Of a stretch of DNA of 64,000 bases, positions 1,198-31,754 are shown piece after piece. Numbering within the stretch: the first letter of the stretch is position 1; every line of letters starts with the position of its first letter. Below the pieces are notes generated by a model. It saw only the letters and a program-made list of their open reading frames with translations. It did not search any database and was not told the DNA's origin. Location: assembly GCA_035687205.1 (NCBI GenBank), contig DASRYK010000074.1, positions 728-64,727 on the forward strand, in the 5' to 3' direction. The stretch comes from Methylocella sp. Lineage in GTDB: Bacteria > Pseudomonadota > Alphaproteobacteria > Rhizobiales > Beijerinckiaceae. The translations under genes were made by a program, and so were the position numbers.

Positions 1198-1662
1198 ATG
1201 GATGCGCCCATGAATAATGCGCTGCCCATGGCCGAGACCGCCCATGTGATTCCCGGCCGGACGCGCTTGCGCATAGCCGCGCAGCGCGGCAATGCAGCAT
1301 TTTTCGAGTCGGCCGCAGCCATTCTAAGAGCCATCCCGGGCGTGTCCAAAGCCGAAGGCCGGCCTTTGACCGGCAGCCTCGTGATTCACCACGATGCTCC
1401 CCTCTCCCTCATAGTCGCGGCCGCGCTTGAAAAGCGGCTTTTCGCTGTTGCGGAAAAAAACCCTGCCCCGGCACCCGAATGGCCTGAGCTTCCGCTTGAC
1501 TTGCGCAGCGCGGCCCGAATTGCCTTGGGCCTTTTGGCTTTTTGGCAGTTCATTGAGGGCCGCGTTCTGCCGCCCGCTTTGACCCTCGCGTGGTATGCCG
1601 CACGGCTTGCCCCTTTGCCGGCAGAGACGGATGAAGGGGATGCAGGGAACGGCAGCGATTGA
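1198..1662 (+). CDS. HMA2-like domain protein with C-terminal hydrophobic segment
   Basis: HVIPGRTRLR...GVSKAEGRPLTGSLVIHH matches the HMA2 pattern (PGRxR ... xxTGSxxx). C-terminal LGLLAFWQ...LPPALTLAWYA. Confidence 0.75.
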   Translation: MDAPMNNALPMAETAHVIPGRTRLRIAAQRGNAAFFESAAAILRAIPGVSKAEGRPLTGSLVIHHDAPLSLIVAAALEKRLFAVAEKNPAPAPEWPELPLDLRSAARIALGLLAFWQFIEGRVLPPALTLAWYAARLAPLPAETDEGDAGNGSD

Positions 1663-3770: not shown

Positions 3771-4991
3771 TCAGCCTTTCGTTAAGGTCCATTGCACGAT
3801 CGGCCGGGCGGGCGACCAGGCTTGAAATGTGCCAAGGGCATCGGCCCGCGAAATTGCGATCCGTGTCAGCTCGCCGCCCTGCGCGTTAAACCGGCGCATG
3901 AGTTCAGCCTCGGTTTCAAGCGTCACCGCATTGACGACGAGCCTACCGCCGGGCGCAAGCGCGGCAAGGGCCGCGTCGATGAGACCCGCATCGCTTGCGC
4001 CGCCGCCAATGAAGACGGCTTGAGGCTGAGGCAGGCCCGAGAGCGCCTCTGGCGCCCGGCCGGTGACAACTTCGATCTGCGGGACGCCGAGCCGGTCTGC
4101 ATTGCGGGCAATGAGACGCGCCCTGTCTTGCCGCATCTCGATCGCTATGGCGCGGTTGGCGGGGCTTCTCAGCAGCCACTCAATCGAGATCGACCCAGAA
4201 CCCGCGCCAATATCCCATAAGAGCTCGCCGCGCCGCGGGGCGAGCGACGAAATGGTGATCGCCCGCACCTCCCGCTTGGTGAGCTGCCCATCCGTCTCGA
4301 ACCAAAAATCCGGAAGCCCGCTCGCCCAAGGCAGCGTGCGTGATTGCGCCCCTGCGGCAATTTCGAGCGCAACGAGATTGAGAGGATCGATACCCGCAAG
4401 CGCAAAAGAGGAAGCCCGCGCCTCTCGCACGCGCTCCCGCGGCCCGCCCATGGCTTCGAGCACCACGATCCGGGAATCCTCAAGCTTCATCTCGCAAAGG
4501 AGCCTTGCAAGGCGCGCAGGCGTCGCCCCATCGCAGGAAAGGCACAGAATTCTTGCCGCAGGCTGGAGAAAGGGAATGATCTGCGCGAGATCGCGGCCGT
4601 GGACCGAGACGAGGCAGCAATCCTGAAGGCTCCACTTGAGCCTGGCCGCCGCGAGGCTGAAAGCGGAAGGGGCCGGGAAGCACTCCATTTCCTCCGGCGC
4701 GACATGAGCGCTGAGCAGGCTTCCCACGCCATAGAAAAAGGGATCGCCCGACGCGAGGATGCAAACCGGAAATCCGCGGTAGGCAAGAATGGCGGGGATG
4801 GCATCGGTCAAAGGCGAAGGCCAGCTCAGCATCTTGGCGGCAAGCGGGCCTGCAAGCTTAAGGTGGCGCTTGCCGCCAACAACAAGCCAGGCTTGCATCA
4901 GCCTCGCCCGCGCGGCAGGAGAAAGCGCGGCGGCGCCCTCCTCGCCAATACCGATGAGCGTCAGCCATTTCCCCGGTGTTTCCCTTGTCAT
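3771..4991 (-). CDS. cobL: Precorrin-6B C5,15-methyltransferase (CbiE/CbiT fusion)
   Basis: LIGIGEEG, LASGDPFFYGVG, GQLTKREVR, LWDIGAGSGSI, GGRLVVNAVTLET. Confidence 0.95.
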   Translation of the reverse strand: MTRETPGKWLTLIGIGEEGAAALSPAARARLMQAWLVVGGKRHLKLAGPLAAKMLSWPSPLTDAIPAILAYRGFPVCILASGDPFFYGVGSLLSAHVAPEEMECFPAPSAFSLAAARLKWSLQDCCLVSVHGRDLAQIIPFLQPAARILCLSCDGATPARLARLLCEMKLEDSRIVVLEAMGGPRERVREARASSFALAGIDPLNLVALEIAAGAQSRTLPWASGLPDFWFETDGQLTKREVRAITISSLAPRRGELLWDIGAGSGSISIEWLLRSPANRAIAIEMRQDRARLIARNADRLGVPQIEVVTGRAPEALSGLPQPQAVFIGGGASDAGLIDAALAALAPGGRLVVNAVTLETEAELMRRFNAQGGELTRIAISRADALGTFQAWSPARPIVQWTLTKG

Positions 4992-5785: not shown

Positions 5786-6516
5786 ACAAAAGGCGGGCCG
5801 TTTTCGCGGGGAATGATCCGTGTCTCGCTCGAGCCGATGATGATCAGCGTGCTCATATCGGCCCGGGAGGGATCGGCGGCCCCCAAAACCGTCACAGACA
5901 CGTCTTCGTCCGCTCGGCCGAGCGCGCGGGCAAAAACCACCGGGGTCGCAGCGTCTTTCATGCTGCGCAGCAATGCGAAGGCGTCGCAGATCCGGCCCGG
6001 CCGCGCCTCGGAAGCAGGATTGTAGAGCGCGATCACGAAATCGGCGGCGGATGCAGCCGCAAGCCTCCTTTCGATGACTCCCCATGGCTTGAGATTATCC
6101 GACAAGGAAATTGCGCAGAAATCATGCCCCAAAGGCGCGCCCGCTCTCGCCGCTGCCGCCTGCATTGCCGTAATCCCGGGGCTCACCGCAACGTCAATAC
6201 TGCGCCAGCGCGGCTCGCCAGCGATGGCTTCGAAAACTGCCGCGGCCATGGCAAAGACGCCAGGGTCGCCGCCCGAGACGAGGACAGCGCGGCGGCCGCT
6301 CTCCGCAAGATGCAACGCGTGCCGCGCACGGGCGAGCTCTTGCCCATTGCCGGTCGCGTGGCGCGCTTGGCCTTCTGCGGGAGGAATTCTTTCAAGATAG
6401 GAGGAGTAGCCGACCAGGTCCGTTGCTCCAGCAATGAGCTCGGCGGCCTCGGGCGTCATCCATTGGGCCCCCCCAGGGCCAAGACCAACGATCCGCAGGG
6501 ATCCGCGCGTGCTCAA
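5752..6516 (-). CDS. cobJ: Precorrin-3B C17-methyltransferase
   Basis: VGLGPG, VSGGDPGVFAMA, PGITAMQAAAARAGAPLGHDFCAISLSDNLKPW, LYNPAS, YTPRG. Confidence 0.95.
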   Translation of the reverse strand: MSTRGSLRIVGLGPGGAQWMTPEAAELIAGATDLVGYSSYLERIPPAEGQARHATGNGQELARARHALHLAESGRRAVLVSGGDPGVFAMAAAVFEAIAGEPRWRSIDVAVSPGITAMQAAAARAGAPLGHDFCAISLSDNLKPWGVIERRLAAASAADFVIALYNPASEARPGRICDAFALLRSMKDAATPVVFARALGRADEDVSVTVLGAADPSRADMSTLIIIGSSETRIIPRENGPPFVYTPRGAKAVL

Positions 6517-7256
6517 GGGCGCCTTCCCCGGCCGGGGATGAGGATCGACGAAAAATAAGGGGCATGGCCATCGGTCTTGGCGGCAAGAGGAATAACCGCC
6601 TCTGCTTCTGCCGTGCCATGCTCGACATAGACCGCCTGGGCGAGGCGGCCTGATTCGGCGATCGCATCGCGAATCTTAGCAAGATTGCTGCCTATCTTGA
6701 TGATCACCAAGGCGTCGCTGCGTGCGAGATGGCTGAGGAGCGCTGCCCGTTCAAGCGTGCCAGGCAGGACGCTCAAGACATCATCGCCCCAGGCGATGGG
6801 CGCTTGGGCGGCGCTCCAGCAGCCAGACATCCCCGTAACCCCTGGGATAATCTCCACATCGAAACGGCCTTTAACCCGCAGGAAAATATGGATGAAGGAG
6901 CCGTAGAACAGGGGATCGCCTTCGCAGACAAGAGCGACGTCCCTGCCTTCCGAAAGATGCGCAGTGAGCGCATTTTCAGACTGAGCATAAAAGCGGTCGA
7001 GAGCCTCTGCATAGGCGGGGCCGCTGAAAGGCTCCTCCGTGGTCAAAGGAAAATGCAAGGGCAGGAGGCAGCACGCAGCCCCCGCCCAGCGCTCGAGGAT
7101 CGGATGAGCCCGGCCGCAAGCGCCTTTCTTCGCGAAATAAGCAGCAACGGGGACTGCGGCGAGAAGCTTCGCGGCCTTCACCGTCACGAGGCCGGGATCG
7201 CCTGGGCCGAGGCCAACGCCGAAGAGACGGCCCTTTGATGGCGGTTGGCTGCTCAT
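6513..7256 (-). CDS. cobI: Precorrin-2 C20-methyltransferase
   Basis: GVGLGPGDPGLVTVKA, CEGDPLFYGSF, IPGVTGM, APYFS. Overlaps the cobJ start. Confidence 0.95.
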   Translation of the reverse strand: MSSQPPSKGRLFGVGLGPGDPGLVTVKAAKLLAAVPVAAYFAKKGACGRAHPILERWAGAACCLLPLHFPLTTEEPFSGPAYAEALDRFYAQSENALTAHLSEGRDVALVCEGDPLFYGSFIHIFLRVKGRFDVEIIPGVTGMSGCWSAAQAPIAWGDDVLSVLPGTLERAALLSHLARSDALVIIKIGSNLAKIRDAIAESGRLAQAVYVEHGTAEAEAVIPLAAKTDGHAPYFSSILIPGRGRRP

Positions 7257-7900
7257 AGGGCCTCGCTGGCGATTGCATTTAAGGCCGCTGCGGCGACTGC
7301 GCTTCCGCCCCTGCGCCCGCGGAGTGTTATGAAAGGCACAGGGGAGCCAGCAATCAAAGCGTCTTTCGATTCGGCGGCGCCAACAAAGCCGACGGGCATT
7401 CCCACGATGCAGGCGGGCCTTTCCTCCGTGCCGGGCAGCATCTCCAGCAAATGGAACAATGCGGTTGGCGCATTGCCGATCACGGCAATGGCGCCGTCAA
7501 GCTTGCCGCGCCAGAGCTCAACGGCGGCTGCGCTGCGGGTCGTGCCAAGATCTTGCGCAAGCGTTGCGGCTGCCGGATCGCCGAGAGTGCAAAGGACTTC
7601 GTTTCCGCGCGGCAGCCGCGCGGCGATTATGCCGCTTGCCAGCATTCTCGAATCACAGAGAACCGGCGCCCCTTGCCGGAGAGCTTGGCGCGCCCGCTCG
7701 ACGGCCCCTTTTGAAAAAACGATGTCGGGCGCAATATCCACCATCCCGCAGGCATGGATCATGCGCACGGCGACATGCTCTTCGTCCGGCGCAAAACGCG
7801 AAAGCTCGGCTTCGCTGCGGATCGTTGCAAAGGAGCGGCGGTAGATTTCCGCGCCGGCGCGCAGGTAATTGTAGCGGCGCAAAGCCGGGCTTTGGATCAT
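7253..7900 (-). CDS. cobH: Precorrin-8X methylmutase
   Basis: EIYRRSFATI, RMIHACG, TTRSAAAV, IGNAPTALF, GMPVGFVGAAESK, GRRGGS. Start set at ATG 7900 (ATGA overlap with the cobG stop). Confidence 0.93.
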   Translation of the reverse strand: MIQSPALRRYNYLRAGAEIYRRSFATIRSEAELSRFAPDEEHVAVRMIHACGMVDIAPDIVFSKGAVERARQALRQGAPVLCDSRMLASGIIAARLPRGNEVLCTLGDPAAATLAQDLGTTRSAAAVELWRGKLDGAIAVIGNAPTALFHLLEMLPGTEERPACIVGMPVGFVGAAESKDALIAGSPVPFITLRGRRGGSAVAAAALNAIASEAL

Positions 7901-9210
7901 GACGGAGCCGGCTTGCCCCGCCGTCCAGCGCGGCGCGCGATTTCTTCGAGTTTCTCCCGCACTGCCGCCAGAGTGAGCCCGGCAGCATTGCCAATATCTT
8001 GACCGAGCCTCTTTGGATTTGCTGCCAGATCGTAAAGCCCCGCCCGCGCGACGAGCATCAAAGGAGCATCCGGCTTCCGGCCGCAGGACTTTTCGCAGCC
8101 CGACACATGGAGCGGGATCCCGATGCTCCAGAGCTGCTCCACGGCTGGCTGCAAAGCCAACGCATCGGCATGGGTGTTGGTCGTGCCTGATTCGCAAGCG
8201 CCTGAGCCGCCGCAGGCCGAGATCGCGGCTCGCGCGTCGCTGCAATCGGTGATGAAGCCCTGGGCGCAAAGCTCTTCCTCAAGGGATTTGGCATGGCCTT
8301 CCTGCACATGAGGAAAGAGCAGCGCGCGCCAGGGCGTGAGCCTAATCTCGCCGGAAGCGAACTTCGCGGCAGCGCAGGCGGCAGCCTCAAGCATGCGGGT
8401 ATCGAGACGCCCGAGCGTGGCTCCGGCCCCAAAGCAGGCGGTGCCATTGACACGGAAAAGCCCAATGGGACAGGGCTCTTTGGCGAGACCTGCTGCGCGC
8501 GGCTTATGAAGGTGAAGCCTCGCCCGCGCCGCAACGGCCCCCGCCCCGAGCCGCTCGACAAGGCTGCGCATTCTTCGCGGCGGGTCTTTCAGTTGCGATG
8601 CAAGGCTCAGAAATGCCCAAGCAAGCCGCCGCGCCACAAACGGGATCTGGCGCGGCGGGCAATGTCCCAGGAAACTGGCATCATCCGCGCAGCCGCCAAT
8701 GCCTATGGCGAACGACTGGCTCTCCTCATCCCAGTCGAAACGCACATCGGCGCTGATGCGCGCAAGCGAAAGCGCGCTTCCGCCGTCAATAAGAAAGCAG
8801 AACTTCGCTGGCAAGGCGTGAAGGCCGCTTGAGCCTGAGAGCAGGGCCTCGAGATCCTTGGCCGCAGCTAGCGCATCTTCCCGTCCGTCGAGACCGGCTA
8901 ACGGGTCAACAAGGACGTTGCGGACGGACTCTGCTGCGGCGGAGGGATCCATCATCCCAAGGCGGGCGATCACTTCCGTAAGGCGGGGAAGAGCGTCTCT
9001 GTGAAGGCCGCGGATTTGCAGATTGGCGCGGCTTGTGAGGTCGAAGAGCCCGTTGCCGAAGGTGCGCCCGGCCGTGGCGATCTCGCGCAGAGCGGAGGAG
9101 GAAATGCTGCTTCCGCTGATCTTCAGCCGAACAAGCAGCCCGTCTTTCGCGGGCATGGGCCGGAGAACACCAGGGCACCAGCCTTTAAGGGCATAGGCTT
9201 TTCCGGTCAT
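7897..9210 (-). CDS. cobG: Precorrin-3B synthase
   Basis: KGWCPGVLRPMPAKDGLLVR, DLTSRANLQIRG, LPAKF, LTPWR, CGGSGACESG, HVSGCEKSCG. Start ATG 9210 overlaps the cobN stop. Confidence 0.92.
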   Translation of the reverse strand: MTGKAYALKGWCPGVLRPMPAKDGLLVRLKISGSSISSSALREIATAGRTFGNGLFDLTSRANLQIRGLHRDALPRLTEVIARLGMMDPSAAAESVRNVLVDPLAGLDGREDALAAAKDLEALLSGSSGLHALPAKFCFLIDGGSALSLARISADVRFDWDEESQSFAIGIGGCADDASFLGHCPPRQIPFVARRLAWAFLSLASQLKDPPRRMRSLVERLGAGAVAARARLHLHKPRAAGLAKEPCPIGLFRVNGTACFGAGATLGRLDTRMLEAAACAAAKFASGEIRLTPWRALLFPHVQEGHAKSLEEELCAQGFITDCSDARAAISACGGSGACESGTTNTHADALALQPAVEQLWSIGIPLHVSGCEKSCGRKPDAPLMLVARAGLYDLAANPKRLGQDIGNAAGLTLAAVREKLEEIARRAGRRGKPAPS

Positions 9211-12200
9211 GCCTGCTCCCCCTGGGTGAAGGCGGCAAGAACGGCAAGCGCCGAGTTGCTCCGGGTTTGCCAAAAGCCGCGGGCACGGGCGTTCTCAAAG
9301 CATTTCGCAAGAGCGCGGGCAGCCCTCGGATTGGCGCTCATAAGAAATTCCCTCACTTCAGGTTTCCCAAGCGTCGCCCCGAACAAAAGATCGAAATGCT
9401 GGCTCCCCACCGCTTCGCTCAGCACCGCGAAAGCATAAAGATTGTCGGCCGCTGCCGCAATTTCCGCCGCGCCGCGATGGCCGTGCCGCATCTGGCCTGC
9501 GATCCAGCGCGGATTGGCGGCCCGGCCGCGCACCACTCTTGCGATTTCCTCCTTCAAAGTGCGCACCTTGACCGAAGCCGGCCTCGCGGTATTGGCATGA
9601 TAAAGCGTCACTTCGTTTCCGAGCAGACGCGCGGCCGCCGCAAAACCGCCCTCATGATCGGCGGTTTCGCTCGAATCGAGCACATCTCCTTCGTCCTGGT
9701 CCTGGCTGTGCACAAAGGCATCGGCAGTGGCAACCCGCCCAGCAAAATTTCTTGACGGAATGCCTTCGGCCAAAGCGCCGCAATAGGCATGGGACGCGGA
9801 AGCAAGGTAACGCGCTGCCAACGCCTCAGCAGGCAGCATCGGGTTCGCATCGATTGCCTCTGCCAGACCGATGCCGTAGACACCGGGCGCTGTGCCGAAA
9901 ATCCGCAAGGGCGCTTCCCCGGAGCACCGCTGCGCCGCGGCAAGCGGGTTGTGCTCATCGTCTTCGTCCAATGCGCCAACGGCTCGCACGGCTTGGCCGA
10001 AAAGCGTGACCTGCGCCGGAAAGACATCGCGGAAAAGGCCGGAGATCCGCAAAGTCACATCGACCCTCGGGCGCCCGAGGCTCGCGCAGGGGATGATCTC
10101 GAAGCCCGTCACGCGGGCGGAGGCATTATCCCAAAGCGGCCTGACGCCAAGAAGGGCAAGCGCTTGGGCAAGGTCTTCGCCCCCTGTGCGCATGGCGGCG
10201 CTTGCCCAAAGATCCATGACAATCCGCTTTGGCCACTCGCCATGATCTTGAAGATAGCGGGTCAGGACTTCTTGCGCAGCAGCGCGCCCCGTCTCCCAGG
10301 CGGTTCGAGAAGGCACGGCGCGCGGATCGGTTCCATAGAGATTGCGCCCTGTCGGCAGCACATCGATCCTGCCGCGGGACGGCGCTCCGCCAGGCCCCGG
10401 CGGGACAAAGCCGCCATCAAGCGCCTCGAGAAGCGCGGCGCGCTCGGCAGGCCCGCACGACCCCATGAGGCGGCCGATTCTCTGAACCGCTTCCTCGCCG
10501 CCATCCGCCGCCCCGGCTGCGCCCAGAATGGCAGCGGCCGCAGCCGCGAGACCGCCTTCCGGCGGCCGCCCGAAAATATGCAAACCGTCGGCGATCCGCA
10601 TTTCCTTCACATCGCAGAGCCAGCCGTCGAGTTGGCGCAGCGCGTCGGCAGGAGCCGCATCCTCATTGAGGCCGCATTCGTGAAAGAGCCCCGTCTCGCG
10701 GGCGCGCGTAAGGATGGCCTTTGCCAGACGCTTGGCGCGCTTGGGATCGAGCGCCTCGGCCGCGGCATATTCATCAAACAGGGTTTCAAGCTCGAGCGCT
10801 GCGCCATGATGGCCGGCATGGATGAGGGGCGGAGTCAGATGGCTGATGGTTAGGGCGCAGATGCGCCGTTTTGCCTGCGCCGCCTCGCCCGGGTTATTGA
10901 CGATGAAGGGATAGATGACGGGCAGCGGGCCGAGAACCGCCTCTGGAGCGCAGCTTCTGTCCAGCGCCACCGCCTTGCCGGGCAGCCATTCGAGCGTGCC
11001 ATGGGTGCCGCAATGGATGATGGCATGGACCTTTTCGCATTCGCGCAGCCAAGCGTAGAAAGCGATATAAGCATGGCAGGGCGCAAGCGCGGCATCGTGA
11101 TAATCCGCCTTGCGGGTTTCGCGATTGCCGCGATCGGGCTGGAGCGCAATGAGCAAATTTCCGGCGCGGATCACTGGAAAAACAAATGCGCCGCCCTCCG
11201 CGGCATCCCGGGGATCACCCCACTGCGCGCGCACTTGCCCGGCAAATGCTGCGGGCATGTCATCGAATGCGCGGAGATAACTCGAAAGAGGAAAGAGCGC
11301 TGCTCCGGCGCCCTCTTCGAGGCGGCGCATCATACTTTCCGCGCGCGGCAGCGGCGTAACGCTGTAGCCGGCTTCTTGAAGGATCCTGGCGATCTCCGCC
11401 GCGCTGCCTGCGGTGTCGAGGCCAACGGCATAGCCGCCGCGGCCTTGCCTTCCCGGATAGTCTGGCAGGATACAGGCGATCTTGCGCCGGGCGCGCGGGG
11501 TCCTGCGCAGGATCACCCATGAAGCGGCCAGGCTCGCCACAAATTCCGTGCGTGACGGCAGCGGAGCATGAACCCGCGGGGCGAATTCGAGATCGGCACG
11601 GCGGCTTGCTTCCTCTTTGAAAGCAAAGGCGCGGGTTATCAGCCGCCCGTCGAGCTCCGGGAGGACGGCATTCATTGCAAGATCCGCAGCGCCCAGGCCG
11701 CGGGGATTATTCCGCCACTGCGCCTCTTCAGCGCTTGAGAGGATTGCCTGCAGCACCGGCACGCGGGCCTCATCGAGAACGCTAGATTCATCTTCGAGGC
11801 GCGCTGAAAAGCCTGTTGTGTTGACGATGATGTCAGGCCTGCAGCGGGAAAGCTCCTCGCGAAGCCAAGCAATGGCCTCCGTCTCCTTGAGACTGGCCAC
11901 AAAGACCGCCGTCACGGAAAGACCGCGCGCGGCAAGCACATCCGCCAGAGCCTCAATCGCCGCCGTGTCGCCCGCTAATAAGTAGGAGCGGTAGAATACA
12001 ATGAGAGCTTTGCCCAAGCAGGGCTCTGCCCTGCGGCAGCCGCCCTCGTAGCGCCCAGCGGAGGGAGCCGCTGAGGCAGGCGGCAGCGCCCGCCAAACCG
12101 GAGCTTCGCGCTCAAAGCTTTCGGCAAAAGCCAGCACCGCACCCACATGTTCGACCCCGCCCATCTGGAAAGCAGCGTGAATGCGCCGGAGATCAGCAAT

Positions 12201-12593
12201 GGGCACCGTCGAAGCCGCATCGAGCCTCTCGTCTTCCGTCGAGTCGCCCGGCACGGCGGCAAAGGCAAACCCTTTGCTGCGCGCCGCGCGCGCGAGCTCC
12301 TCGATACCATAGCGCCAATAATCGAGCCCGCCCAAGAGGCGGACCAGAACGAAGCGCGCATGGCCCACGGTTTTCTCAAGATAAAGATCAACCGAATAAG
12401 GGTGCTTGAGCCAGGCAAGATTGGCTAGCCTGAGGCTCATGGCGCCGGGGGGGCGCTGCCGCGCGGTTTCCGCCACAAGGCTCAGATCGCTGTCCGAATA
12501 GGAAAGAAACAAAATGCCAGCGGGAGTCTGGCCAAGGTCGGCGGCCGCTTCGGCCTCGTCCAGAGATCGCGAATCGATCCGCAAGAGATGCAT
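9207..12593 (-). CDS. cobN: Cobaltochelatase subunit CobN
   Basis: MHLL N-terminus, HCGTHGTLEWLPGK, YPFIVNNPGEAAQAKRR, LPTGRN, RVDVTLRISGLFRDVFP. Confidence 0.96.
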   Translation of the reverse strand: MHLLRIDSRSLDEAEAAADLGQTPAGILFLSYSDSDLSLVAETARQRPPGAMSLRLANLAWLKHPYSVDLYLEKTVGHARFVLVRLLGGLDYWRYGIEELARAARSKGFAFAAVPGDSTEDERLDAASTVPIADLRRIHAAFQMGGVEHVGAVLAFAESFEREAPVWRALPPASAAPSAGRYEGGCRRAEPCLGKALIVFYRSYLLAGDTAAIEALADVLAARGLSVTAVFVASLKETEAIAWLREELSRCRPDIIVNTTGFSARLEDESSVLDEARVPVLQAILSSAEEAQWRNNPRGLGAADLAMNAVLPELDGRLITRAFAFKEEASRRADLEFAPRVHAPLPSRTEFVASLAASWVILRRTPRARRKIACILPDYPGRQGRGGYAVGLDTAGSAAEIARILQEAGYSVTPLPRAESMMRRLEEGAGAALFPLSSYLRAFDDMPAAFAGQVRAQWGDPRDAAEGGAFVFPVIRAGNLLIALQPDRGNRETRKADYHDAALAPCHAYIAFYAWLRECEKVHAIIHCGTHGTLEWLPGKAVALDRSCAPEAVLGPLPVIYPFIVNNPGEAAQAKRRICALTISHLTPPLIHAGHHGAALELETLFDEYAAAEALDPKRAKRLAKAILTRARETGLFHECGLNEDAAPADALRQLDGWLCDVKEMRIADGLHIFGRPPEGGLAAAAAAILGAAGAADGGEEAVQRIGRLMGSCGPAERAALLEALDGGFVPPGPGGAPSRGRIDVLPTGRNLYGTDPRAVPSRTAWETGRAAAQEVLTRYLQDHGEWPKRIVMDLWASAAMRTGGEDLAQALALLGVRPLWDNASARVTGFEIIPCASLGRPRVDVTLRISGLFRDVFPAQVTLFGQAVRAVGALDEDDEHNPLAAAQRCSGEAPLRIFGTAPGVYGIGLAEAIDANPMLPAEALAARYLASASHAYCGALAEGIPSRNFAGRVATADAFVHSQDQDEGDVLDSSETADHEGGFAAAARLLGNEVTLYHANTARPASVKVRTLKEEIARVVRGRAANPRWIAGQMRHGHRGAAEIAAAADNLYAFAVLSEAVGSQHFDLLFGATLGKPEVREFLMSANPRAARALAKCFENARARGFWQTRSNSALAVLAAFTQGEQA

Positions 12594-12596
12594 GGC

Positions 12597-13640
12597 CTAA
12601 AGCTGCCCGCTCGCTAGCTCATTCGCAACCGACACTTTGTCAAATCCCTTCTGCCCGATGATCACGAGCTGCCCCTGCCGCGGCTCGCCTTCCTCCCAGG
12701 GGCGGCCGAACGACTTCTGAAAACGCTTTCCGACGCCCTGGACGAGAAGACGCGCAGGCTTTCCTTGCACCTCGACAAATCCCTTGATCCTGAGAACGCC
12801 AAAGCGCTCCGCAATCCCTGCCAGCTTGCACAACAAGGCATCGCCATCGCCGACGGCGCCAGTCTCAACGACGGCGCTTTCGAAATCATCGTGATCATGC
12901 TCCCCCGCTGCATCGTGATGCGATGGCCTTGCGGCGAGATCGTCCTCAGCCGCCGCGCCGAGTCCGAGCAGCACCGCCGGATTGAGCCTGCCCTCGCGCG
13001 CTGGGACGATCTTGACCGCGCGGGGAACGCGCTCCGCAAGATCCGCAGCGATGCTCTGCAGCGTTTCCTGACTGATGAGGTCGGCCTTGTTGAGGACGAT
13101 GAGATCGGCGCAAAGAAGCTGATCTTCAAAGACTTCCTCGAGAGGATTGTCATGCGCGATGGAGGGGTCTGCCTCCCGCTGCTGGGCAAGCTTTGCCGGA
13201 TCGGCCGCAAAGCGGCCATCTGCCACCGCCTCGCCATCAACAACCGCGATCACGCCATCAACGGTGAGCCGGGCACGGATGAGGGGCCAGTCAAATGCCT
13301 TGACCAAGGGCTTCGGCAAAGCAAGGCCTGAAGTTTCGATGACGATATGACTGGGGAGCGGCTGAAGTGAGAGAAGCTGCTCAATCGCAGGAAGAAAATC
13401 ATCGGCAACCGTGCAGCAGAGGCAGCCATTGGCAAGCTCGATGATCCTGTCCGCCGGGCAGGCGGGATCGCCGCAGCCGTTCACGATCTGAGCATCGACT
13501 CCGATATCGCCGAACTCGTTGATGAGAAGCGCAAGGCGGCGGCCCTGGCTGCTTTCCAGAAGATGCCGGATGAGCGTTGTTTTACCCGCGCCGAGAAATC
13601 CGGTGATGATTGTGACGGGGATTTTGGAAAGGGGCATCAT
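12597..13640 (-). CDS. cobW: Cobalamin biosynthesis GTPase CobW
   Basis: KIPVTIITGFLGAGKTT, NEFGD, ELANGCLCC, IETSGLALPKPLV, NKAD, QGVG. Confidence 0.95.
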   Translation of the reverse strand: MMPLSKIPVTIITGFLGAGKTTLIRHLLESSQGRRLALLINEFGDIGVDAQIVNGCGDPACPADRIIELANGCLCCTVADDFLPAIEQLLSLQPLPSHIVIETSGLALPKPLVKAFDWPLIRARLTVDGVIAVVDGEAVADGRFAADPAKLAQQREADPSIAHDNPLEEVFEDQLLCADLIVLNKADLISQETLQSIAADLAERVPRAVKIVPAREGRLNPAVLLGLGAAAEDDLAARPSHHDAAGEHDHDDFESAVVETGAVGDGDALLCKLAGIAERFGVLRIKGFVEVQGKPARLLVQGVGKRFQKSFGRPWEEGEPRQGQLVIIGQKGFDKVSVANELASGQL

Positions 13641-13769: not shown

Positions 13770-13774
13770 CCGGT

Positions 13775-13972: not shown

Positions 13973-14000
13973 TTCAAGAGTAGCCGGAACCGCAGGCGTG

Positions 14001-16501: not shown

Positions 16502-18961
16502 TTGACGGCAATGAAGATCTTGCCGGATATGGGGCGAAACGACATGCGGTGCAGTGCGGGCGTATACAAATCTATTGGATTCTGGGCAGCCAGCCTCGGC
16601 GCAGCGGTCACATCAGGAGCCCCCGCTATTGCAGAAACCGCATCGCCACAATTGGCGATCAAGCTTCCCGAAGTCGAGGTGGTCTCGACCTCGCCTTTGC
16701 CGGGAGAAGGCGAAAACCGCGACAAGATCCCGGCGATGGTGCAAACCGTCCCCGCTGCTGAATTCTCGCGCATAAATTCGCAAAATATCACCGACACGCT
16801 GCAGCAGCAGATTCCAGCGGCAGTCTCGATTGACGTCAATGGAAACCCTTTCTCGCAGGATCTGCGCTACCGCGGCTTTGTCGCTTCGCCGCTGCAGGGC
16901 CAGCCGCAGGGTCTTGCTGTCTATCAGAACGGAATCCGCGTCAATGAGGCCTTCGGGGACACGGTGAACTGGGATCTCATCCCGCCACAAGCTATCTACC
17001 GCGCCGACATTTTCACCAATAATCCCGTTTTTGGGCTGAACGCGCTCGGCGGCGCAATTAGCCTGCAAATGAAGAACGGCTTTCTCTGGCAAGGGCTTGA
17101 GACGCAAGGATTGGGCGGCTCTTTCGGGCGCGTCAGCGGATACTTCGAATATGGTAAACAATCAGGCGACTACAGCGTTTACGTCACAGGCGATGCGACG
17201 CGCGACGGAGGCTGGCGGTACTTCTCGCCTTCAACCCTTTTCAGGGTTTACGGTGATGCAGGTTACCGCGCGCCGGGCAATGAGCTTCATTTCACCGCCT
17301 CAGGAGCAAGAAATATGCTCGGCGTCGTCGGCCCGACGCCCGTGGGCTTGCTTCTCGTCAACGACAGCGCGGTGTTCACATCGCCGCAGAAGACCATCAA
17401 CAGCGTTGGCACTCTCGCCTTAAACGGCAGGTTCGAGATTGATCCCAAATGGTCGGTCGTGAGCAATTTCTATATGCGCAGCTTCATGCAGCACCATACG
17501 GATGGAAACGATTCCGACATCCAGAACTGCGCAGAAAACGATCAGCCAAACAATTTCGGCGGATTCCTCTGCCTGGCGGACGAAAACTTCTCCGGCCTTG
17601 GAAATGGCAATGCCTTCGTCATCCTAGGCGGCAACGGTAAACCCATTCCTTTTGCAGAAGGCGCCGTTTACGGGACCATCGACCGCACTTTCGTGCATGC
17701 GACAACCTTTGGAACTGCTCTGCAAGCAACAAACAACGATATATTCTTTGAGCATCAAAACTATCTGACATTTGGCGCAAGCGTGGACCGCAGCCTATTC
17801 AGTTTCGGAGCGAACAGCCAGATTGGCGACATCTTTCCCAATCTCGTTGTCGGCACGGCGCCTTTCCCAGGCTTGGGCTCCTTCATCGCGACCGCAGGCG
17901 AGATCGGCTATGTGCCCACCTATCTTACCGGCAACACAACGTATTACGGCGTCTACACGCTCGATACCTTCAACATTACGCCGGAGCTTGCATTGACCGC
18001 GGGAGCGCGGCTCAACATCGCCCAAATCTTGACGCAGGATATCACCGGCCATGGCCCTGAGCTCAACATCAGCGACACATTCTCGCGCATCAATCCCGTC
18101 GCGGGCCTGACTTACAAACTGCTTCCCACCGTGACGGCCTATGGAGGCTATTCGGAGGCCAACCGCGCGCCAACGCCGCTGGAGCTCGATTGCGCGAACC
18201 CCAACCGCCCCTGTCTTCTTGAGAACTCCCTTGTGTCTGATCCTCCGCTTCAGCAAGTCGTCGCACATACTTTCGAAGCCGGCCTGCGCGGAGGGCAGCC
18301 GGTCTTCGAGAGCGGCAGCATCGAATGGAAGGCAGGTTTTTTCCGCACCGAGAGCACGAACGATATTGTTGCCCTCGCAAGCACAATCCCTGGGCGCGGC
18401 TATTTCGCAAATGTCCCATCAACTCTGCGCCAGGGGGTCGAAGCCGAAGCAAGGGTCCAATATGGGAATCTCTCAGCCTATCTGAATTATGCTTTCGTCG
18501 ATGCAACCTACCAGTTCACGGGAACTCTGGCGTCTCCGAATAATCCCTTTGCCAACGAGCAAGGAAACATCCTTGTCACGCCAGGAGACCATATTCCGGG
18601 AATTCCGCGGAATTTGTTCAAGGCCGGCTGCGACATTGCGCTAACCCCCGAGTTCAAGATCGGGACGGATGTGCTGCTCGCCGGCGCGCAATATTTCGTT
18701 GGTGACGATTCCAATCAAAACCCAAAGCTGCCACTTTACTGGATCGCTAATATTTTTGCTTTCTACCAGATGGATGAGAACATCCAGTTTTTCGGACGCG
18801 TCAACAATATCTTCAACAACAGAAACGCGACCTACGGCACCTTTTTCGAGACGGACACAAATGCCCAGCTCGCCACCGCAACCCCCTTTTCTTTCGATCC
18901 GCGAACGGTCACGCCGCTGCAGCCTGTCTCTTTGTACGGCGGGGTGAAAGTCACATTTTAG
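16502..18961 (+). CDS. TonB-dependent outer-membrane receptor
   Basis: Signal peptide, LPEVEVVST TonB box, plug GNPFSQDLRYRGFVASPLQG...NEAFGDTVNWDLIP, C-terminal YGGVKVTF. Start could be ATG 16511 or later. Confidence 0.93.
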   Translation: MTAMKILPDMGRNDMRCSAGVYKSIGFWAASLGAAVTSGAPAIAETASPQLAIKLPEVEVVSTSPLPGEGENRDKIPAMVQTVPAAEFSRINSQNITDTLQQQIPAAVSIDVNGNPFSQDLRYRGFVASPLQGQPQGLAVYQNGIRVNEAFGDTVNWDLIPPQAIYRADIFTNNPVFGLNALGGAISLQMKNGFLWQGLETQGLGGSFGRVSGYFEYGKQSGDYSVYVTGDATRDGGWRYFSPSTLFRVYGDAGYRAPGNELHFTASGARNMLGVVGPTPVGLLLVNDSAVFTSPQKTINSVGTLALNGRFEIDPKWSVVSNFYMRSFMQHHTDGNDSDIQNCAENDQPNNFGGFLCLADENFSGLGNGNAFVILGGNGKPIPFAEGAVYGTIDRTFVHATTFGTALQATNNDIFFEHQNYLTFGASVDRSLFSFGANSQIGDIFPNLVVGTAPFPGLGSFIATAGEIGYVPTYLTGNTTYYGVYTLDTFNITPELALTAGARLNIAQILTQDITGHGPELNISDTFSRINPVAGLTYKLLPTVTAYGGYSEANRAPTPLELDCANPNRPCLLENSLVSDPPLQQVVAHTFEAGLRGGQPVFESGSIEWKAGFFRTESTNDIVALASTIPGRGYFANVPSTLRQGVEAEARVQYGNLSAYLNYAFVDATYQFTGTLASPNNPFANEQGNILVTPGDHIPGIPRNLFKAGCDIALTPEFKIGTDVLLAGAQYFVGDDSNQNPKLPLYWIANIFAFYQMDENIQFFGRVNNIFNNRNATYGTFFETDTNAQLATATPFSFDPRTVTPLQPVSLYGGVKVTF

Positions 18962-27320: not shown

Positions 27321-27513
27321 GAAAAGCTTCTCTCAAGCAAGAAAGCCACGTTCAAGCCATTGTCATCCGTTTTCGAGAAGATTCGTTCACGCCTAATGAT
27401 ACGGCCCCGGCTGGGTTTGTTTCGCCGGTTCGCAAGGCCTGGCCGGCACCGTAAAAGTCTTGTGCTATGCCGTGACATGGGCACAGCCAGAAAGAAACGT
27501 CAAAGCGGCCATA

Positions 27514-30500
27514 ATGATTGATCCGGAAAATCCTGGCGCAGTGCCAAACAAAGCTCCGCAGCAGCCCAATGGCAGGCTAAGACCAGGCCGAGGCGCCAAA
27601 ATCGTCCATGACGCAGTAAAGGGCCGCATCCGCTTCCGGCATAGGGAGCTTACCGGGCGGCCCGGTCTCGCATTGGCTGTCATGGAGTCGCTTCGCCGCT
27701 GCCATGACGTTAAAAGCGTGCGGGCCAGCGCGCTCACAGGCTCCGTGCTTGTCGAATTCGGATCTGCCGTGACGGCTTCGCAGCTCGCGCAAGCCATCGA
27801 CGCAATCGTGAACGGCCACAGCGCTTCGCTTGCGTTGCAGCTTTCTCTCGAGCGCTCCTTGTCCGCTGCTGGAGCTTCCGGGAGCCAGGCCGCCGGTCAG
27901 GCATGGCATGCTTTATCAGCCGCGGAGGCATCCAAACAGCTCGGCGCATGCCTCGAAAGCGGCTTAGCGCCTGAAGAAGCGCAGCGCCGGATCGCGCTTT
28001 ATGGCCGCAACGAGATGCAGAGACTCGAGGCACGCCCGCTGCTTGCGATCTTTACCGAGCAAACGACAAGCCTGCCGATGATCTTGCTTGCTGTTTCTGC
28101 GGGGCTCTCGATTGCCACAGGCGCTTTCGGCGACGCTGTTGTCATCGTTGCCGCCATGCTGCTTAATTCGATGATTGCCACAGCGACGGAGCGCCAGGCT
28201 GAGCGCACCATCGTAGGCCTCTCGAACACGGCGTTGCAACCGGTGCCCGTTTTGCGGGGCGGCCGCCGCCGTCTTATCGATCCGGCCGATCTCTCGCCCG
28301 GAGATCTCGTGCTGCTTGAGCGCGGAGCGCTTGTCCCCGCAGATGCGAGGCTTGTTAAAGCTGCCGACCTCACCGTGAACGAATCCGCTTTGACCGGTGA
28401 AGCGCTTCCTGTCCAGAAGGATGCTGGACTTGTTCTTCCAGCCGATACGCCTCTGCCTGACCGCAAGAATATAGTTTTCCGCGGAACTGCCGTGACCGGA
28501 GGGTCCGCTGCGGCACTTGTCTTTGCCACCGGCAGAGCGACTGAGATCGGAAAGCTTCAGCAGCTCTTAGGCATGGTGCGCCCGCCCGAGACGCCTATGC
28601 AACGCCAGCTCGATGAGGTCGAGCGCGAGCTTGTCGCTGTCAACAGCGTCATTTGCGCCTGTGTTTTTGGCATTGGACTCTTGCACGGCAACGGTCTAAT
28701 CGCGACCATCCGCAGCGCGATCGCTCTTGCAGTCGCTGCCCTTCCGGAGGGGTTGCCCGCGGTGGCGACAACGGCCCTTGCAATCGGTGTCCAGCAGATG
28801 CGCAGACGCCATGTGCTCGTGCGCAAGATCGGCGCTCTCGAAACGCTTGGCTCCATTCAGGTGATTGGCCTCGACAAGACCGGCACGCTCACCGAGAACC
28901 AAATGGCAGCCGTGGCGGTCCATGCCGGAAGCCGTTATCTCGTCCTTCGCGAAAACCGCTTCGTTTGCGAGGGCAATGATCCCGGCGAAATGATCGCTGG
29001 CATCGTGCGGCGCTTATTCGAGGTGACCGCTCTTTGCAGTGAAGCTGCCATCCGCCTGCTGCCCGAAGGCCCTGAGATCGAGGGCACCCCCACAGAAAGC
29101 GCGCTGGTCTCGGCGGCTCTGGCGCTTGGCATCGACGTTGCTGCCCTCCGCGCCTCTGCTCCTATCGTCAAAATGGCGGTGCGCGCGGAAGGGCGTAAAC
29201 GGATGAGCACGCTCCATGAGACCGCTGGCGGCGGGCGCAAGCTCTGTGTCAAGGGCGATCCCGTGGAGGTGCTGTCGCTCTGCACGCATCTGCTCATGCC
29301 AGACGGTCTTGCCGCGCTCGACGAGGCAAGCCGCGCGGCAATCCTCAAGGCCAATGATCGGATGGCTGGCCAAGCCTTGCGCGTGCTCGGCGTGGCTGCG
29401 GCTGAGGGAGAGAGGGATCCTGCAAACGAGAGCGGATTAGTTTGGCTTGGTCTTGTGGGCCTTGCTAACCCAATCCGGCCAAGCGTCGTCCCTGCGCTAG
29501 CAAGGCTCCAGCGCGCTGGCATCCGCACCGTGATGATCACTGGCGATCAGAGCGCGACAGCCTTTGCGATTGCAAAGGATCTGCGCCTCAACGCAGATGG
29601 CGAGCTCGTCGTCCTTGAAGCGGGCCGCATTGCGGGTCTCAAGCCCGAGGTCCTGGCCGCTCTCGTCGCCCGGCCGCATGTTTTCGCCCGGGTGAGCCCT
29701 GTCGAAAAGCTCAACATCGTGAAAGCGCTTCAGGCGCAAGGCCTGATTGTCGCCATGACGGGGGACGGGATCAATGATGGCCCGGCCCTAAGGGCGGCCA
29801 ATGTCGGCATTGCGATGGGCGGCGAGGGCACAGATGTTGCGCGGGAGGCGGCCGACATCGTGCTTGCCCGCGATGATCTCGAGGGCATTATTGAAGCCAT
29901 CCGTCTCGGCCGCTCGACCTATGCCAATATGCGCAAGGTCCTGCGCTACCTTACATCAACGAATACGGCCGAGACATTGATTATGCTCGCGGCCGCTGTT
30001 GTTAACCGCGGCGAGCCTCTCACGCCGATGCAGCTTTTGTGGGCGAACATCGTTGGCGAGGTTGCCCCTGCGCTGGCGCTCGCTCTTGAGCCGCCAGAGC
30101 CGCGCGTTCTCGACCAGCCGCCGCACGACCCCCGCGCGCCTATTCTGACAAGCGCCGATTTCCACAAAATCGTCCGTGAAGGCGTTGTCATCGGAACAAT
30201 GGCTCTTGGCGGATATTTTCTTTCGCTGGGCGCAGGGGAAAGAGGGGCAAAGAGCGTTGCCTTTCACAGCCTTGCCCTTTCACATTTTCTTCAAGCCATC
30301 AGCTGCCGGTCGGAGACCCGCGGCTTTACGGCTGAGTTCTGCCGGCCCTCGAGCACAAAGCTTTATGGCGGGCTTGCAGTTTCGGCTCTCCTCCAAGCCA
30401 TGGCGCAGTTTGTGCCGCCCCTTCGCCGGGTCCTAAATCTTGCTCCTCTCGCTTCCAAGGAGCTTGCTGCCATCGCTGGCAGCGCTCTTGGCGGCGCGGC

Positions 30501-30576
30501 CGTCAATGATATTTTGAGCGCTATCTTTCGCGATTCCAAAACATTGCGAAGCCAAGGCCTTGCAGGAAACCCATGA
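27514..30576 (+). CDS. P2A-type cation-transporting P-type ATPase with N-terminal HMA2-like domain
   Basis: KGRIRFR...ASALTGSVLVEF N-domain, WHALS...GL..EAQRR...GRN, ESALTGEA, ALPEGLP, DKTGTLT, TGD, GDGINDGPAL. Confidence 0.92.
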   Translation: MIDPENPGAVPNKAPQQPNGRLRPGRGAKIVHDAVKGRIRFRHRELTGRPGLALAVMESLRRCHDVKSVRASALTGSVLVEFGSAVTASQLAQAIDAIVNGHSASLALQLSLERSLSAAGASGSQAAGQAWHALSAAEASKQLGACLESGLAPEEAQRRIALYGRNEMQRLEARPLLAIFTEQTTSLPMILLAVSAGLSIATGAFGDAVVIVAAMLLNSMIATATERQAERTIVGLSNTALQPVPVLRGGRRRLIDPADLSPGDLVLLERGALVPADARLVKAADLTVNESALTGEALPVQKDAGLVLPADTPLPDRKNIVFRGTAVTGGSAAALVFATGRATEIGKLQQLLGMVRPPETPMQRQLDEVERELVAVNSVICACVFGIGLLHGNGLIATIRSAIALAVAALPEGLPAVATTALAIGVQQMRRRHVLVRKIGALETLGSIQVIGLDKTGTLTENQMAAVAVHAGSRYLVLRENRFVCEGNDPGEMIAGIVRRLFEVTALCSEAAIRLLPEGPEIEGTPTESALVSAALALGIDVAALRASAPIVKMAVRAEGRKRMSTLHETAGGGRKLCVKGDPVEVLSLCTHLLMPDGLAALDEASRAAILKANDRMAGQALRVLGVAAAEGERDPANESGLVWLGLVGLANPIRPSVVPALARLQRAGIRTVMITGDQSATAFAIAKDLRLNADGELVVLEAGRIAGLKPEVLAALVARPHVFARVSPVEKLNIVKALQAQGLIVAMTGDGINDGPALRAANVGIAMGGEGTDVAREAADIVLARDDLEGIIEAIRLGRSTYANMRKVLRYLTSTNTAETLIMLAAAVVNRGEPLTPMQLLWANIVGEVAPALALALEPPEPRVLDQPPHDPRAPILTSADFHKIVREGVVIGTMALGGYFLSLGAGERGAKSVAFHSLALSHFLQAISCRSETRGFTAEFCRPSSTKLYGGLAVSALLQAMAQFVPPLRRVLNLAPLASKELAAIAGSALGGAAVNDILSAIFRDSKTLRSQGLAGNP

Positions 30577-31754
30577 CACCGGATATGGTCTTCACCTCCG
30601 AGTCGGCCACACCCGGTCATCCGGACAAGCTCTGCGACCAGATCAGCGATGCTGCCATTGATGCTTTTCTGCGCCAGGATCCCGCGGCCCGCGCTGTAGT
30701 TGAATGCGCGGTTGCGACGGGCGTCGTCTTCCTCGCTGCCCGTTTTGCCGCTGAGGCGGCTGTGGATCTGCCTTCGCTGGCGCGCAAGGTGATCGCGGAT
30801 GCCGGCTATCTCAACGGCCATTTCGACGCGCGCAGCTGTGCCATTCTGACGAGCTTTTCCGAGCTTCCGATGAACATGCGTGAGCCGCCGCTTGTCTCCC
30901 TCGATGAGGAGGCGGCCGAACGCTGCGTCGCGCATGACCAGGCCAATGTGTTCGGCTTTGCCTGCCGGGAAACGCCGGAGCTTATGCCGCTGCCGATCAG
31001 CCTCGCTCACCGCCTGGCACGCGCCATCGACCGTGCCCGGCAGTCTTACGCCCCCTGGCTCTCGCCGGACGGCAAGACTCAGGTCTCTGTCGAATACCGG
31101 AACTGGCGCCCGCAGCGCATCAGCGCAATCTCCGTGACGGCAGCTTTCAACGCGGGCACGCCGCCGGGAAAGGCAGACGAATGCCTGCGCGCTCTCGCAC
31201 TGGATTGTTTTGCAGGCGGGGATTTGAAGCCTGACTCGAAGACAGAAATCCACATCAATGCGGCGGGTGTCTACGAAAGCGAGGTTGGCGGCCCCACGCG
31301 GCATGCAGGACTGACCGGCCGGAAGAATGGAATCGACACCTATGGCGAGTTCGCCCGGCAGAGCGGCGCGGCTCTCTCAGGAAAGGATCCCTCGCGGATC
31401 GACCGGATTGGCGCCTATGCTGCCCGCCATGCCGCAAAGAATGTCGTTGCCGCAGGGCTTGCTGAGCGCTGCGAGGTGCACCTCTCCTATGCGATCGGGC
31501 GCGCACGCCCCTTGAGTCTCGCAGTCGAAACATTCGGCAGCGGCAAAGTGCCGGATCGCGAAATTGCAGAGCGCCTCGGGCGGAGCCTCGATTTCCGCCC
31601 TGCCGCCATCTCGCACCGCTTCGGGCTGCGCACGGCGCCCGGGCGCTTGGGCGCTGAAGGCTTTTATCAGCCGCTCGCCGTGTTTGGCCATTTCGGGCGC
31701 ACCGACCGGAACTTGCCCTGGGAGGCAGCCGATGCCGTGGAAGCTCTCTCCTGA
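30573..31754 (+). CDS. Methionine adenosyltransferase-like protein (atypical MetK paralog)
   Basis: FTSES..GHPDK, DGKTQV, GLTGRK..DTYG, SGKD, AAKNVVAAGLA, GHFGR are present, but the Met-binding residues are substituted. ATGA overlap with the ATPase. Confidence 0.88.
   Translation: MTPDMVFTSESATPGHPDKLCDQISDAAIDAFLRQDPAARAVVECAVATGVVFLAARFAAEAAVDLPSLARKVIADAGYLNGHFDARSCAILTSFSELPMNMREPPLVSLDEEAAERCVAHDQANVFGFACRETPELMPLPISLAHRLARAIDRARQSYAPWLSPDGKTQVSVEYRNWRPQRISAISVTAAFNAGTPPGKADECLRALALDCFAGGDLKPDSKTEIHINAAGVYESEVGGPTRHAGLTGRKNGIDTYGEFARQSGAALSGKDPSRIDRIGAYAARHAAKNVVAAGLAERCEVHLSYAIGRARPLSLAVETFGSGKVPDREIAERLGRSLDFRPAAISHRFGLRTAPGRLGAEGFYQPLAVFGHFGRTDRNLPWEAADAVEALS

Follow-up and report, generated by a model that had tools for sequence, protein, structure and literature searches.

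A CoBaHMA-fused P2A-type ATPase encoded in Methylocella sp. carries a rare ion-site variant and is linked to a MetK-like paralogue

Introduction

Reviews of P-type ATPases state that their prokaryotic diversity is still undescribed (PMC10654040). Here we analysed a stretch of 64,000 nucleotides of Methylocella sp. (contig DASRYK010000074.1; hereafter the window), in which an open reading frame at positions 27514..30576 encodes a P-type ATPase with an N-terminal CoBaHMA domain. On balance, the residues of its transport pathway suggest that the protein is a cation-exporting P2A-type pump of the CoBaHMA family in which ion site I has been removed or filled and which would carry one hard divalent cation, likely Ca2+. 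The observations that lead to this proposal are a P2A core with all its catalytic motifs, a rare set of residues in membrane helices M6 and M8 that departs from verified Ca pumps, and the replacement of the M8 His by Arg in a relative. The rare GE / (H/R)..Q pocket, a ten-column signature that goes with it, the selection on it and its distribution, whether mosaic or convergent, are new in this analysis. The CoBaHMA domain is already described in print and in Pfam. An earlier note on this DNA, made from the letters and the translation, had called the gene product a hybrid pump with a heavy-metal-type N-domain and an altered ion site; the sequence features it listed (TGEA, PEGL, N..E, NIVGE, the M8 His and the lack of CxxC) were all found in the translation of this frame.

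Results

The catalytic core is of P2A type

The Pfam domains of the ATPase were found in the order HMA_2 (residues 31-91), Cation_ATPase_N, E1-E2_ATPase, Hydrolase/Cation_ATPase and Cation_ATPase_C. Besides the phosphorylation and dephosphorylation motifs (Table 1), the translation holds the P-domain motifs MITGD (residues 674-678) and TGDGIND (749-755), and DKTGT, TGE(A) and TGD/GDGxND, which mark P2A pumps, are all present, with Ser replaced by Ala in TGES. An AlphaFold2 (AF2) model with a predicted local distance difference test score (pLDDT) of 86 and a predicted template modelling score (pTM) of 0.76, together with Pfam and Foldseek, gave the P2A fold and a topology of ten transmembrane (TM) helices with Cation_ATPase_N and Cation_ATPase_C. 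The best Foldseek matches of the model were SPCA1, SERCA and LMCA1, and the closest solved structures by sequence were LMCA1 (9e-129), followed by SPCA1 and SERCA. These results bear out the Ca-ATPase-type core proposed in the earlier note, and the catalytic machinery, judged from the translation, is intact. The features of P1B heavy-metal ATPases were not seen, M4 reading PEGL with no CPx or SPC and the score against TIGR01525 being 236.6 (cut-off 346). The start of the frame is not certain: with a TTG at 27460 the protein would be 18 residues longer (window 27460-27513), the start called for the 91% identical orthologue in locus L010 lies at the position of query residue 10, and residues 1-24 have a pLDDT <50.

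The ion sites depart from those of verified Ca pumps

The best solved sequence match, LMCA1 of Listeria monocytogenes (PDB 6zhf, 9euq), is ca. 32% identical to the ATPase in the Foldseek alignment and shares its 10-TM P2A core and the Glu and Asn of site II. A HMMER alignment in native numbering placed Glu820 of the ATPase on Ala691 of LMCA1 and His924 on Arg795, the residues that correspond to Glu771 and Glu908 of SERCA (PMC11468904); the His that the earlier note had put at the probable M8 position was thus correctly located. The site-II ligands conserved in all Ca2+-ATPases are the M4 Glu of PEGL, the M6 Asn and the M6 Asp (PMC11468904), and this set is incomplete in the ATPase: Glu412 and Asn845 are kept, while the M6 Asp is replaced by Glu849, preceded by Gly848. 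The eukaryotic P2A pumps SERCA1a (Ca2+) and SPCA1 (Ca2+/Mn2+) resemble the ATPase in fold (Foldseek TM-score 0.65-0.75), in PEGL of M4, in Asn..Glu of M5 and in an M6 that starts with Asn; they differ from it in that Thr799 has become Gly, Asp800 Glu and Glu908 His, and in that the ATPase adds the CoBaHMA domain. The M6 motif is NLVTD in SERCA. LMCA1 has neither a CoBaHMA domain nor linkage to a MetK-like gene, its A-domain motif is TGES, and its M6 (NLVND) keeps the Asp where the ATPase reads NIVGE. The departure of M6 and M8 from verified Ca pumps, which the earlier note had pointed out, was therefore confirmed.

The consensus pocket of the family, by comparison, reads AIPEGLPAV in M4, STN(A/L)SE(T/I) in M5, WLNLx(S/T)D in M6 and F..L..QLLH in M8. 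Since the same N..E / NTD / M8 Q..H residues were found in CoBaHMA-less P2A-type pumps of Bacillus, Paenibacillus and Streptococcus, the consensus looks like a common bacterial Ca-pump-type site. The CoBaHMA-less pumps noted for this pocket or for TGEA were those of loci L032, L033, L093, L040, L044, L019 and L092. They belong with a scan of a genome collection with the family alignment, in which, through the generic patterns VMITGDQS and MTGDG[IV]ND, CoBaHMA-less P2A pumps made up 76 of the 80 loci and served as outgroup, the close alphaproteobacterial genomes not being among the loci retrieved.

Replacement of the M6 Asp by Glu occurred in 16 of ca. 340 sampled family members, and the Glu was preceded by Gly or Ala in all 16; in the other 105 close relatives the residue is Asp and follows Ser or Thr. 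The rarity of the GE variant thus fits the departure that the earlier note had read from NIVGE. Five of the 16 clusters (group A: the query, P0002, P0003, P0006 and P0007) keep N..E in M5, have (G/A)E in M6 and, in M8, show the consensus Gln..His reversed, with a His or Arg where SERCA has Glu908 and a Gln three residues on; (H/R)..Q was confined to the Glu background (5/5). The remaining 11 clusters (group B, Methylosinus among them) have Ser for the M5 Asn, NIAGE in M6 and the consensus M8. Ten alignment columns distinguish group A from these 105 relatives with Asp (814, 826, 844, 848, 849, 887, 919, 924, 927 and 963), all of them within TM5-TM10, including Thr814, which stands three residues before Asn817. 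A second database search with residues 800-1010 returned exactly P0002, P0006, P0007 and P0003 on top and no further members of group A. The altered positions correspond to SERCA site-I ligands (Thr799 and Glu908, and Asn768 in group B) and to Asp800, which is shared by the two sites. Of the site-II residues, Glu309 and Asn796 are unchanged in the variant.

Based on these results, we propose the following mechanism. Loss of the Thr799 hydroxyl and pairing of the M8 His or Arg with Glu820 would remove or fill site I, and Glu849 would reposition the carboxylate shared by the two sites. One divalent cation, most probably Ca2+ or a similarly hard cation, would then be bound at a modified site II. 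LMCA1, in which Arg795 fills site I, transports one Ca2+ per cycle (PMC11468904), and a chargeable residue stands at the SERCA Glu908 position in both proteins; by the same logic His924 may serve as a built-in charge or a proton carrier. Because P0006 has Arg in place of His924, a metal-ligand role of this residue is disfavoured and a built-in positive charge favoured. The outcome would be a changed stoichiometry, affinity or pH dependence rather than a heavy-metal pump, and the CoBaHMA domain may regulate or anchor the ATPase, possibly in concert with the free-standing CoBaHMA protein described below. A reshaped or single-site pump is preferred to a transition-metal site since the changes lie at site-I ligands and at the bridging Asp, and since His alternates with Arg in the manner of LMCA1 Arg795.

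Several points weigh against this proposal. The ion is deduced from residue homology alone. The single-site signature of LMCA1, a basic residue at Glu908 with Ala at Glu771, is present only in its first half: Glu820 is retained where LMCA1 has Ala691, so that a loss of site I is not demonstrated. A Glu in place of the universally conserved Asp of site II could just as well point to a different ion. P0006, the relative with Arg, has a truncated MetK-like gene as its neighbour and is possibly decaying, so that the exchange of His for Arg is a weaker argument. The scores of the ATPase were also far under every Ca-ATPase equivalog cut-off of NCBIfam (PMR1-type, 525.9 vs 798.3; SERCA-type, 464.8 vs 703.4; PMCA-type, 373.2 vs 507.05), and the variant groups were delimited with the data in view.

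A tentative alternative is a GE / H..Q pocket tuned to a different, smaller divalent cation (such as Mn2+, Mg2+ or Fe2+), in which His924 would be a ligand and the longer Glu849 would shrink the cavity. In its favour, the variant lacks an Asp that every other sampled pump of the family and the outgroup retains, its pocket gains a His, and the coordinated, selected change of ten residues resembles adaptation to a new substrate; in addition, genes for divalent-metal transporters lie near the modules of relatives (MntP with a group B copy, VIT1 with P0006, MgtE twice, and TerC). Against this stand the Arg of P0006, which cannot ligate metals, and the fact that no Cys or Met ligands are introduced, the remaining ligands being hard oxygen donors. 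Which transporter genes adjoin the module varies among loci, and the window has none near the ATPase, upstream of which no riboswitch or metal-regulator site was found. Nothing pointed to trivalent cations, which the earlier note had listed with Mn and Fe as candidates.

Transport of monovalent ions or protons (Na+, K+ or H+) by the family or the variant appears improbable. Sequence scores were 434-368 bits for LMCA1, SPCA and SERCA vs ca. 260 bits for Na,K- and H,K-ATPases, the residue at the Asn796 position of M6 is Asn and not Asp, M4 reads PEGL as in Ca pumps, and no beta-subunit-like gene was found. These observations outweigh, in our view, the resemblance of an M8 Gln with a polar residue three positions on to the Gln923/Asp926 arrangement in M8 of Na,K-ATPase, a Foldseek TM-score for Na,K-ATPase E1 states (0.73-0.74) equal to that for SERCA, and the general knowledge that MetK enzymes, of which a relative is encoded next to the pump, are K+-activated.

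The variant pocket occurs on different N-terminal backgrounds

The ratio of nonsynonymous to synonymous substitution rates (dN/dS) relative to the 91% identical orthologue was 0.18 overall and 0.135 in TM5-10, so the variant appears to be under purifying selection. In a tree calculated without TM5, TM6 and TM8, the query pair was sister to group B (Shimodaira-Hasegawa-like approximate likelihood ratio test, SH-aLRT, 97), P0003 was sister to the Asp-type P0004 (SH-aLRT 99; 80% identity), and P0006 and P0007 were placed elsewhere; the query lineage formed a long branch (0.68). The approximately unbiased (AU) test rejected a single clade of group A (p = 0.0009) and of all Glu-bearers (p = 0.00035), as well as a single clade on residues 131-800 alone (p = 2.7e-5), p-values that are indicative only because the groups were defined after the data had been seen. 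The group A pocket is thus combined with three or more distinct N-terminal parts.

The C-terminal half gave a different picture. The identity of P0003 and P0004 was ca. 90% in residues 131-450 and 47-66% in residues 871-940, where P0003 was closer to P0006 and P0007 than to P0004. In a tree of residues 801-1005 minus twelve trait columns, the five members of group A came together (ultrafast bootstrap, UFBoot, 93; SH-aLRT 84; 95% of bootstrap trees), and the topology of the N-terminal part was not rejected by the AU test on this short C-terminal part (p = 0.28). Since the N-terminal part rejects one clade while the C-terminal part groups the five variants, the spread of the variant is most simply read as that of a recombined TM5-10 cassette, with extensive convergence as the alternative, and both are left open. 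Pure convergence with three independent origins, the first reading of the tree, was set aside as the sole reading, as the windowed identities and the C-terminal tree group the TM5-10 halves; a recombined cassette is at least as likely.

The N-terminal domain is a CoBaHMA domain of a large pump family

The HMA_2 score of the ATPase was 28.1 bits in the protein scan (cut-off 30) and 31.1 bits, above the cut-off, in a six-frame genome scan, and PF19991 was the precomputed annotation of most of its close relatives. The classical HMA domain (PF00403) gave no match to the ATPase at E<=0.1; there is no CxxC, and Cys63 is the lone Cys of the domain. HMA_2 is the CoBaHMA domain (10.1101/2024.07.07.602159), which was first described in calcyanin by Benzerara et al. 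2022 and is characterised by an additional strand, beta0, that carries a His, by conserved basic residues in beta1 and beta2, and by the absence of CxxC (PMC8890360). A regulatory role with binding of anionic lipids has been hypothesised for it, according to the wording of Gaschignard et al. 2024 that a later preprint quotes. In the AF2 model the pLDDT was >90 across beta0 (29-32), beta1 (38-42), alpha1 (50-61), beta2 (66-72), beta3 (77-82) and alpha2 (88-99), and His32, Gly37, Arg38 and Arg40 were invariant in 16 relatives, Arg42 being nearly so. The domain in the window therefore resembles the CoBaHMA family in its ferredoxin-like HMA fold with the beta0 His, in the basic residues of beta1/beta2 and in the lack of CxxC, and both a transporter-fused and a small stand-alone form are present in the window. 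A survey of CoBaHMA domains by Gaschignard et al. 2024 (Proteins) reportedly found them both in fusion with membrane transport proteins and as small proteins of their own. In calcyanin the domain is joined to a (GlyZip)3 domain, in the window to an ATPase, and nothing in the window linked it to carbonate biomineralisation. Because CxxC is absent, the basic patch is conserved, and the literature proposes regulatory or anionic-lipid binding, the N-domain is identified as a CoBaHMA domain with a thiol-free basic patch, and probably not a sensor or binder of heavy-metal type. The earlier note was thus right about an HMA2-like domain without CxxC; its heavy-metal type was not supported.

A word-indexed search gave 120 relatives at 54-91% identity, those with names being mostly Methylocystis, Methylosinus, Methylocapsa, Rhodoplanes, Pseudolabrys or Xanthobacteraceae. 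When 1.84 billion representatives were searched exhaustively with HMMER, at least 150 clusters at 50% identity were returned, and most of the 150 top clusters aligned from about residue 30 to the C-terminus, thus including the N-domain. A CoBaHMA domain joined to a P2A-type ATPase is thus the usual domain arrangement in a very large family of bacterial pumps; what the earlier note called a hybrid is indeed an HMA_2 domain on a P2A core, but it is not a one-off. The pump was found in 8 of 301 genomes of the order to which the window belongs and in none of 8 sampled from its own taxonomic family, and the best match within the order was 52% identical, compared with 62-91% for metagenome proteins. 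This patchy occurrence, with metagenome proteins closer than the same-order match, suggests lateral acquisition.

The TGEA motif, which the earlier note had counted towards an altered ion site, did not keep that meaning. Of 121 close relatives (an alphaproteobacterial clade), 112 have Ala at position 297, while the wider CoBaHMA-pump family has TGES. As TGEA is the norm in the clade and is also present in CoBaHMA-less cyanobacterial pumps (L019, L092), it carries no information on ion specificity.

Five distant relatives of 1400-1700 residues (P0245, P0258, P0262, P0267 and P0270) have the ATPase core at the C-terminus and a GRxR-like signature. Their M6 reads N..GD in four and N..TE in P0258, the only other Glu at this position. 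They grouped with the CoBaHMA-less pumps in the tree, apart from the clade of the query, and may be similar to CtpH and CtpI, although identity with these could not be confirmed. CtpH and CtpI (mycobacterial, FUPA24, TC 3.A.3.24) are P2-like pumps with an isolated position in trees (PMC10654040, PMC3573892); with their long N-terminal extensions they reach ca. 1500-1600 residues, in contrast to the 1020 of the ATPase.

A MetK-like paralogue and two small proteins accompany the pump

The gene directly 3' of the ATPase gene encodes a MetK-like protein. Because its ATG overlaps the ATPase stop codon (ATGA at 30573-30576), the two genes are predicted to be translationally coupled. The pair was found in loci L010, L013, L015-17, L096-100 and L104-108, which come from Alphaproteobacteria, Desulfovibrio, Syntrophobacteraceae and Binatia, and in every complete locus examined the MetK-like gene followed the ATPase gene directly, with an overlap or a gap of <=12 nt. 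In L010, the locus of the 91% identical orthologue, the synteny and the ATGA coupling are retained. The linked MetK-like copies keep GHPDK, GLTGRK and SGKD and have lost the canonical EQSPDI loop, and Asp238 is replaced by His in 18 of 18. From its sequence, the protein is a MetK-like paralogue with a rebuilt methionine pocket rather than an ordinary S-adenosylmethionine (SAM) synthetase. Among six relatives with a CoBaHMA pump, five have a canonical metK besides the linked paralogue (one of them with two canonical-scoring copies) and one, G263, has the canonical gene only; four other relatives, three without the pump and G183 with a pump lacking CoBaHMA, have one metK each.

The genome from which the window comes (G000, 95%-complete) has the ATPase-linked gene as its sole S-AdoMet_synt_C match, while canonical metK was present in 10 of 10 relatives checked. 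Either the canonical metK lies in the unassembled 5%, or the linked paralogue still makes SAM.

At most loci, a small CoBaHMA membrane protein and a DUF5132-like protein accompany the pair. In the window, their counterparts are encoded by two adjacent genes 26 kb upstream of the ATPase/MetK-like pair, so that the module is split. In tblastn comparisons the DUF5132-like protein was 57-72% identical to the product of the small gene beside the CoBaHMA membrane protein in L104, L106, L107, L108 and L011/12; in L013-L016 and L101 the matches were weaker (39-66%). The free-standing CoBaHMA protein was 48-54% identical to the products of small HMA_2 genes flanking the ATPase/MetK-like pair in L013/14, L104, L106, L107 and L108. 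The recurrent gene sets define a conserved predicted module consisting of the ATPase, the coupled MetK-like protein, the CoBaHMA membrane protein and the DUF5132-like protein, of which no description was found in print. The window has all four genes and is like the conserved module in the coupling and in the change of Asp238 to His; it differs in the split and in an ATPase with GE/H..Q instead of (S/T)D/Q..H. The coordinates are collected in Table 1.

Table 1 Features of the ATPase gene and its module partners in the window.
Feature	Position	Strand	Basis or remark
CoBaHMA-fused P2A-type P-type ATPase	27514..30576	+	1020 aa; Pfam, PDB sequence matches, AF2, Foldseek
N-terminal CoBaHMA domain (Pfam HMA_2, PF19991), residues 29-100	27598..27813	+	HMA_2 matches, AF2, conserved residues
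A-domain dephosphorylation motif TGEA (TGES variant), residues 294-297, Glu296	28393..28404	+	translation
M4 PEGL, residues 411-414; Glu412 = SERCA Glu309, site II	28744..28755	+	P411, E412 and L414 invariant
Phosphorylation motif DKTGT, residues 454-458, Asp454	28873..28887	+	translation; invariant in relatives
M5 Asn817..Glu820 = SERCA Asn768 and Glu771, site I	29962..29973	+	alignment, translation
M6 NIVGE, residues 845-849; Asn845 = Asn796, Gly848 = Thr799, Glu849 = Asp800 (bridging carboxylate)	30046..30060	+	
M8 His924..Gln927 (HFLQ); His924 = LMCA1 Arg795 = SERCA Glu908	30283..30294	+	family consensus Gln..His
MetK-like paralogue	30573..31754	+	three S-AdoMet_synt Pfam domains; ATG overlaps ATPase stop
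DUF5132-like small membrane protein, displaced module partner	889..1170	+	Pfam DUF5132 E=0.012, under threshold; tblastn
Free-standing CoBaHMA (HMA_2) protein with hydrophobic C-terminal hairpin, displaced module partner	1198..1662	+	HMA_2 37.4 bits

It is very improbable that the ATPase is a decaying or non-transporting pseudo-pump with a scaffolding or regulatory role in the module. Such a role might account for the split with the small partners 26 kb away, for the truncated MetK-like gene next to the variant relative P0006 and for the long branch of the query lineage; the frame is intact with all catalytic motifs conserved, the dN/dS values given above are low, and the synteny and ATGA coupling to the MetK-like gene persist in L010.

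A fusion of the ATPase and MetK was considered for L015, in which a stop-free frame of 1285 residues was seen, and was rejected: the frame is an alternative open frame in GC-rich DNA, and the real genes overlap by ATGA. In L011/L012, the contigs with P0006, the MetK-like gene is cut to an N-domain fragment of 144 residues, followed by a CoBaHMA-less P-type ATPase of 854 residues, and VIT1 lies upstream; this module may be decaying or rearranged.

Neighbouring genes and regulatory elements

The ATPase/MetK-like pair is flanked in the window by genes for an Lhr-type helicase and an alpha/beta hydrolase. The module neighbours at other loci vary and include HSP20 (L013, L106, L108), MgtE (L104, L106), MntP (L105), TerC (L107), the VIT1 of L011/L012 and pstSCA-like genes (L106); no MgtE, MntP, TerC, VIT1, HSP20 or pstSCA-like gene adjoins the ATPase in the window. 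Neither a Pho-box-like site nor a sigma-70 consensus or terminator was found upstream of the ATPase gene, in addition to the riboswitch and metal-regulator sites mentioned above, and no Pho-box-like site was found near either module pair in the window. The sole Rfam match was a cobalamin riboswitch (104 bits) at 13763-13982 on the minus strand, 13.5 kb from the ATPase gene. It lies upstream of a minus-strand cluster of cobW, cobN, sulfite-reductase-like (perhaps CobG-type) and precorrin-methylase genes (12597..13640, 9207..12593, 7897..9273, 6513..7256 and 3771..4991). A TonB-dependent receptor is encoded at 16502..18961.

Discussion

The CoBaHMA pumps constitute a large family that spans several phyla and has a fixed set of partner genes. 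For the annotation of its members, our results imply three corrections: the N-domain would not be a metal sensor, TGEA is not diagnostic, and the downstream 'SAM synthetase' is predicted to be a paralogue with an altered methionine pocket.

Speculatively, and with rather little confidence, the family may have at least two discrete, interchangeable pocket designs, of which the rare one, (G/A)E in M6 and (H/R)..Q in M8 with some six supporting TM changes, spreads between lineages as a recombining TM5-TM10 cassette or is re-invented several times. It would change the ion or the ion:ATP:H+ stoichiometry of a four-gene cation-handling module that otherwise stays as it is. The variant P0003 and the consensus-type P0004, which are 90% identical in residues 131-450 and have different pockets, provide a natural experiment in this regard; their comparison could show how site-I and site-II residues set ion choice, stoichiometry and pH dependence in Ca-type pumps. 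If the reading of two pockets is true, it would represent a natural specificity switch of a P-type ATPase that can be read from sequence.

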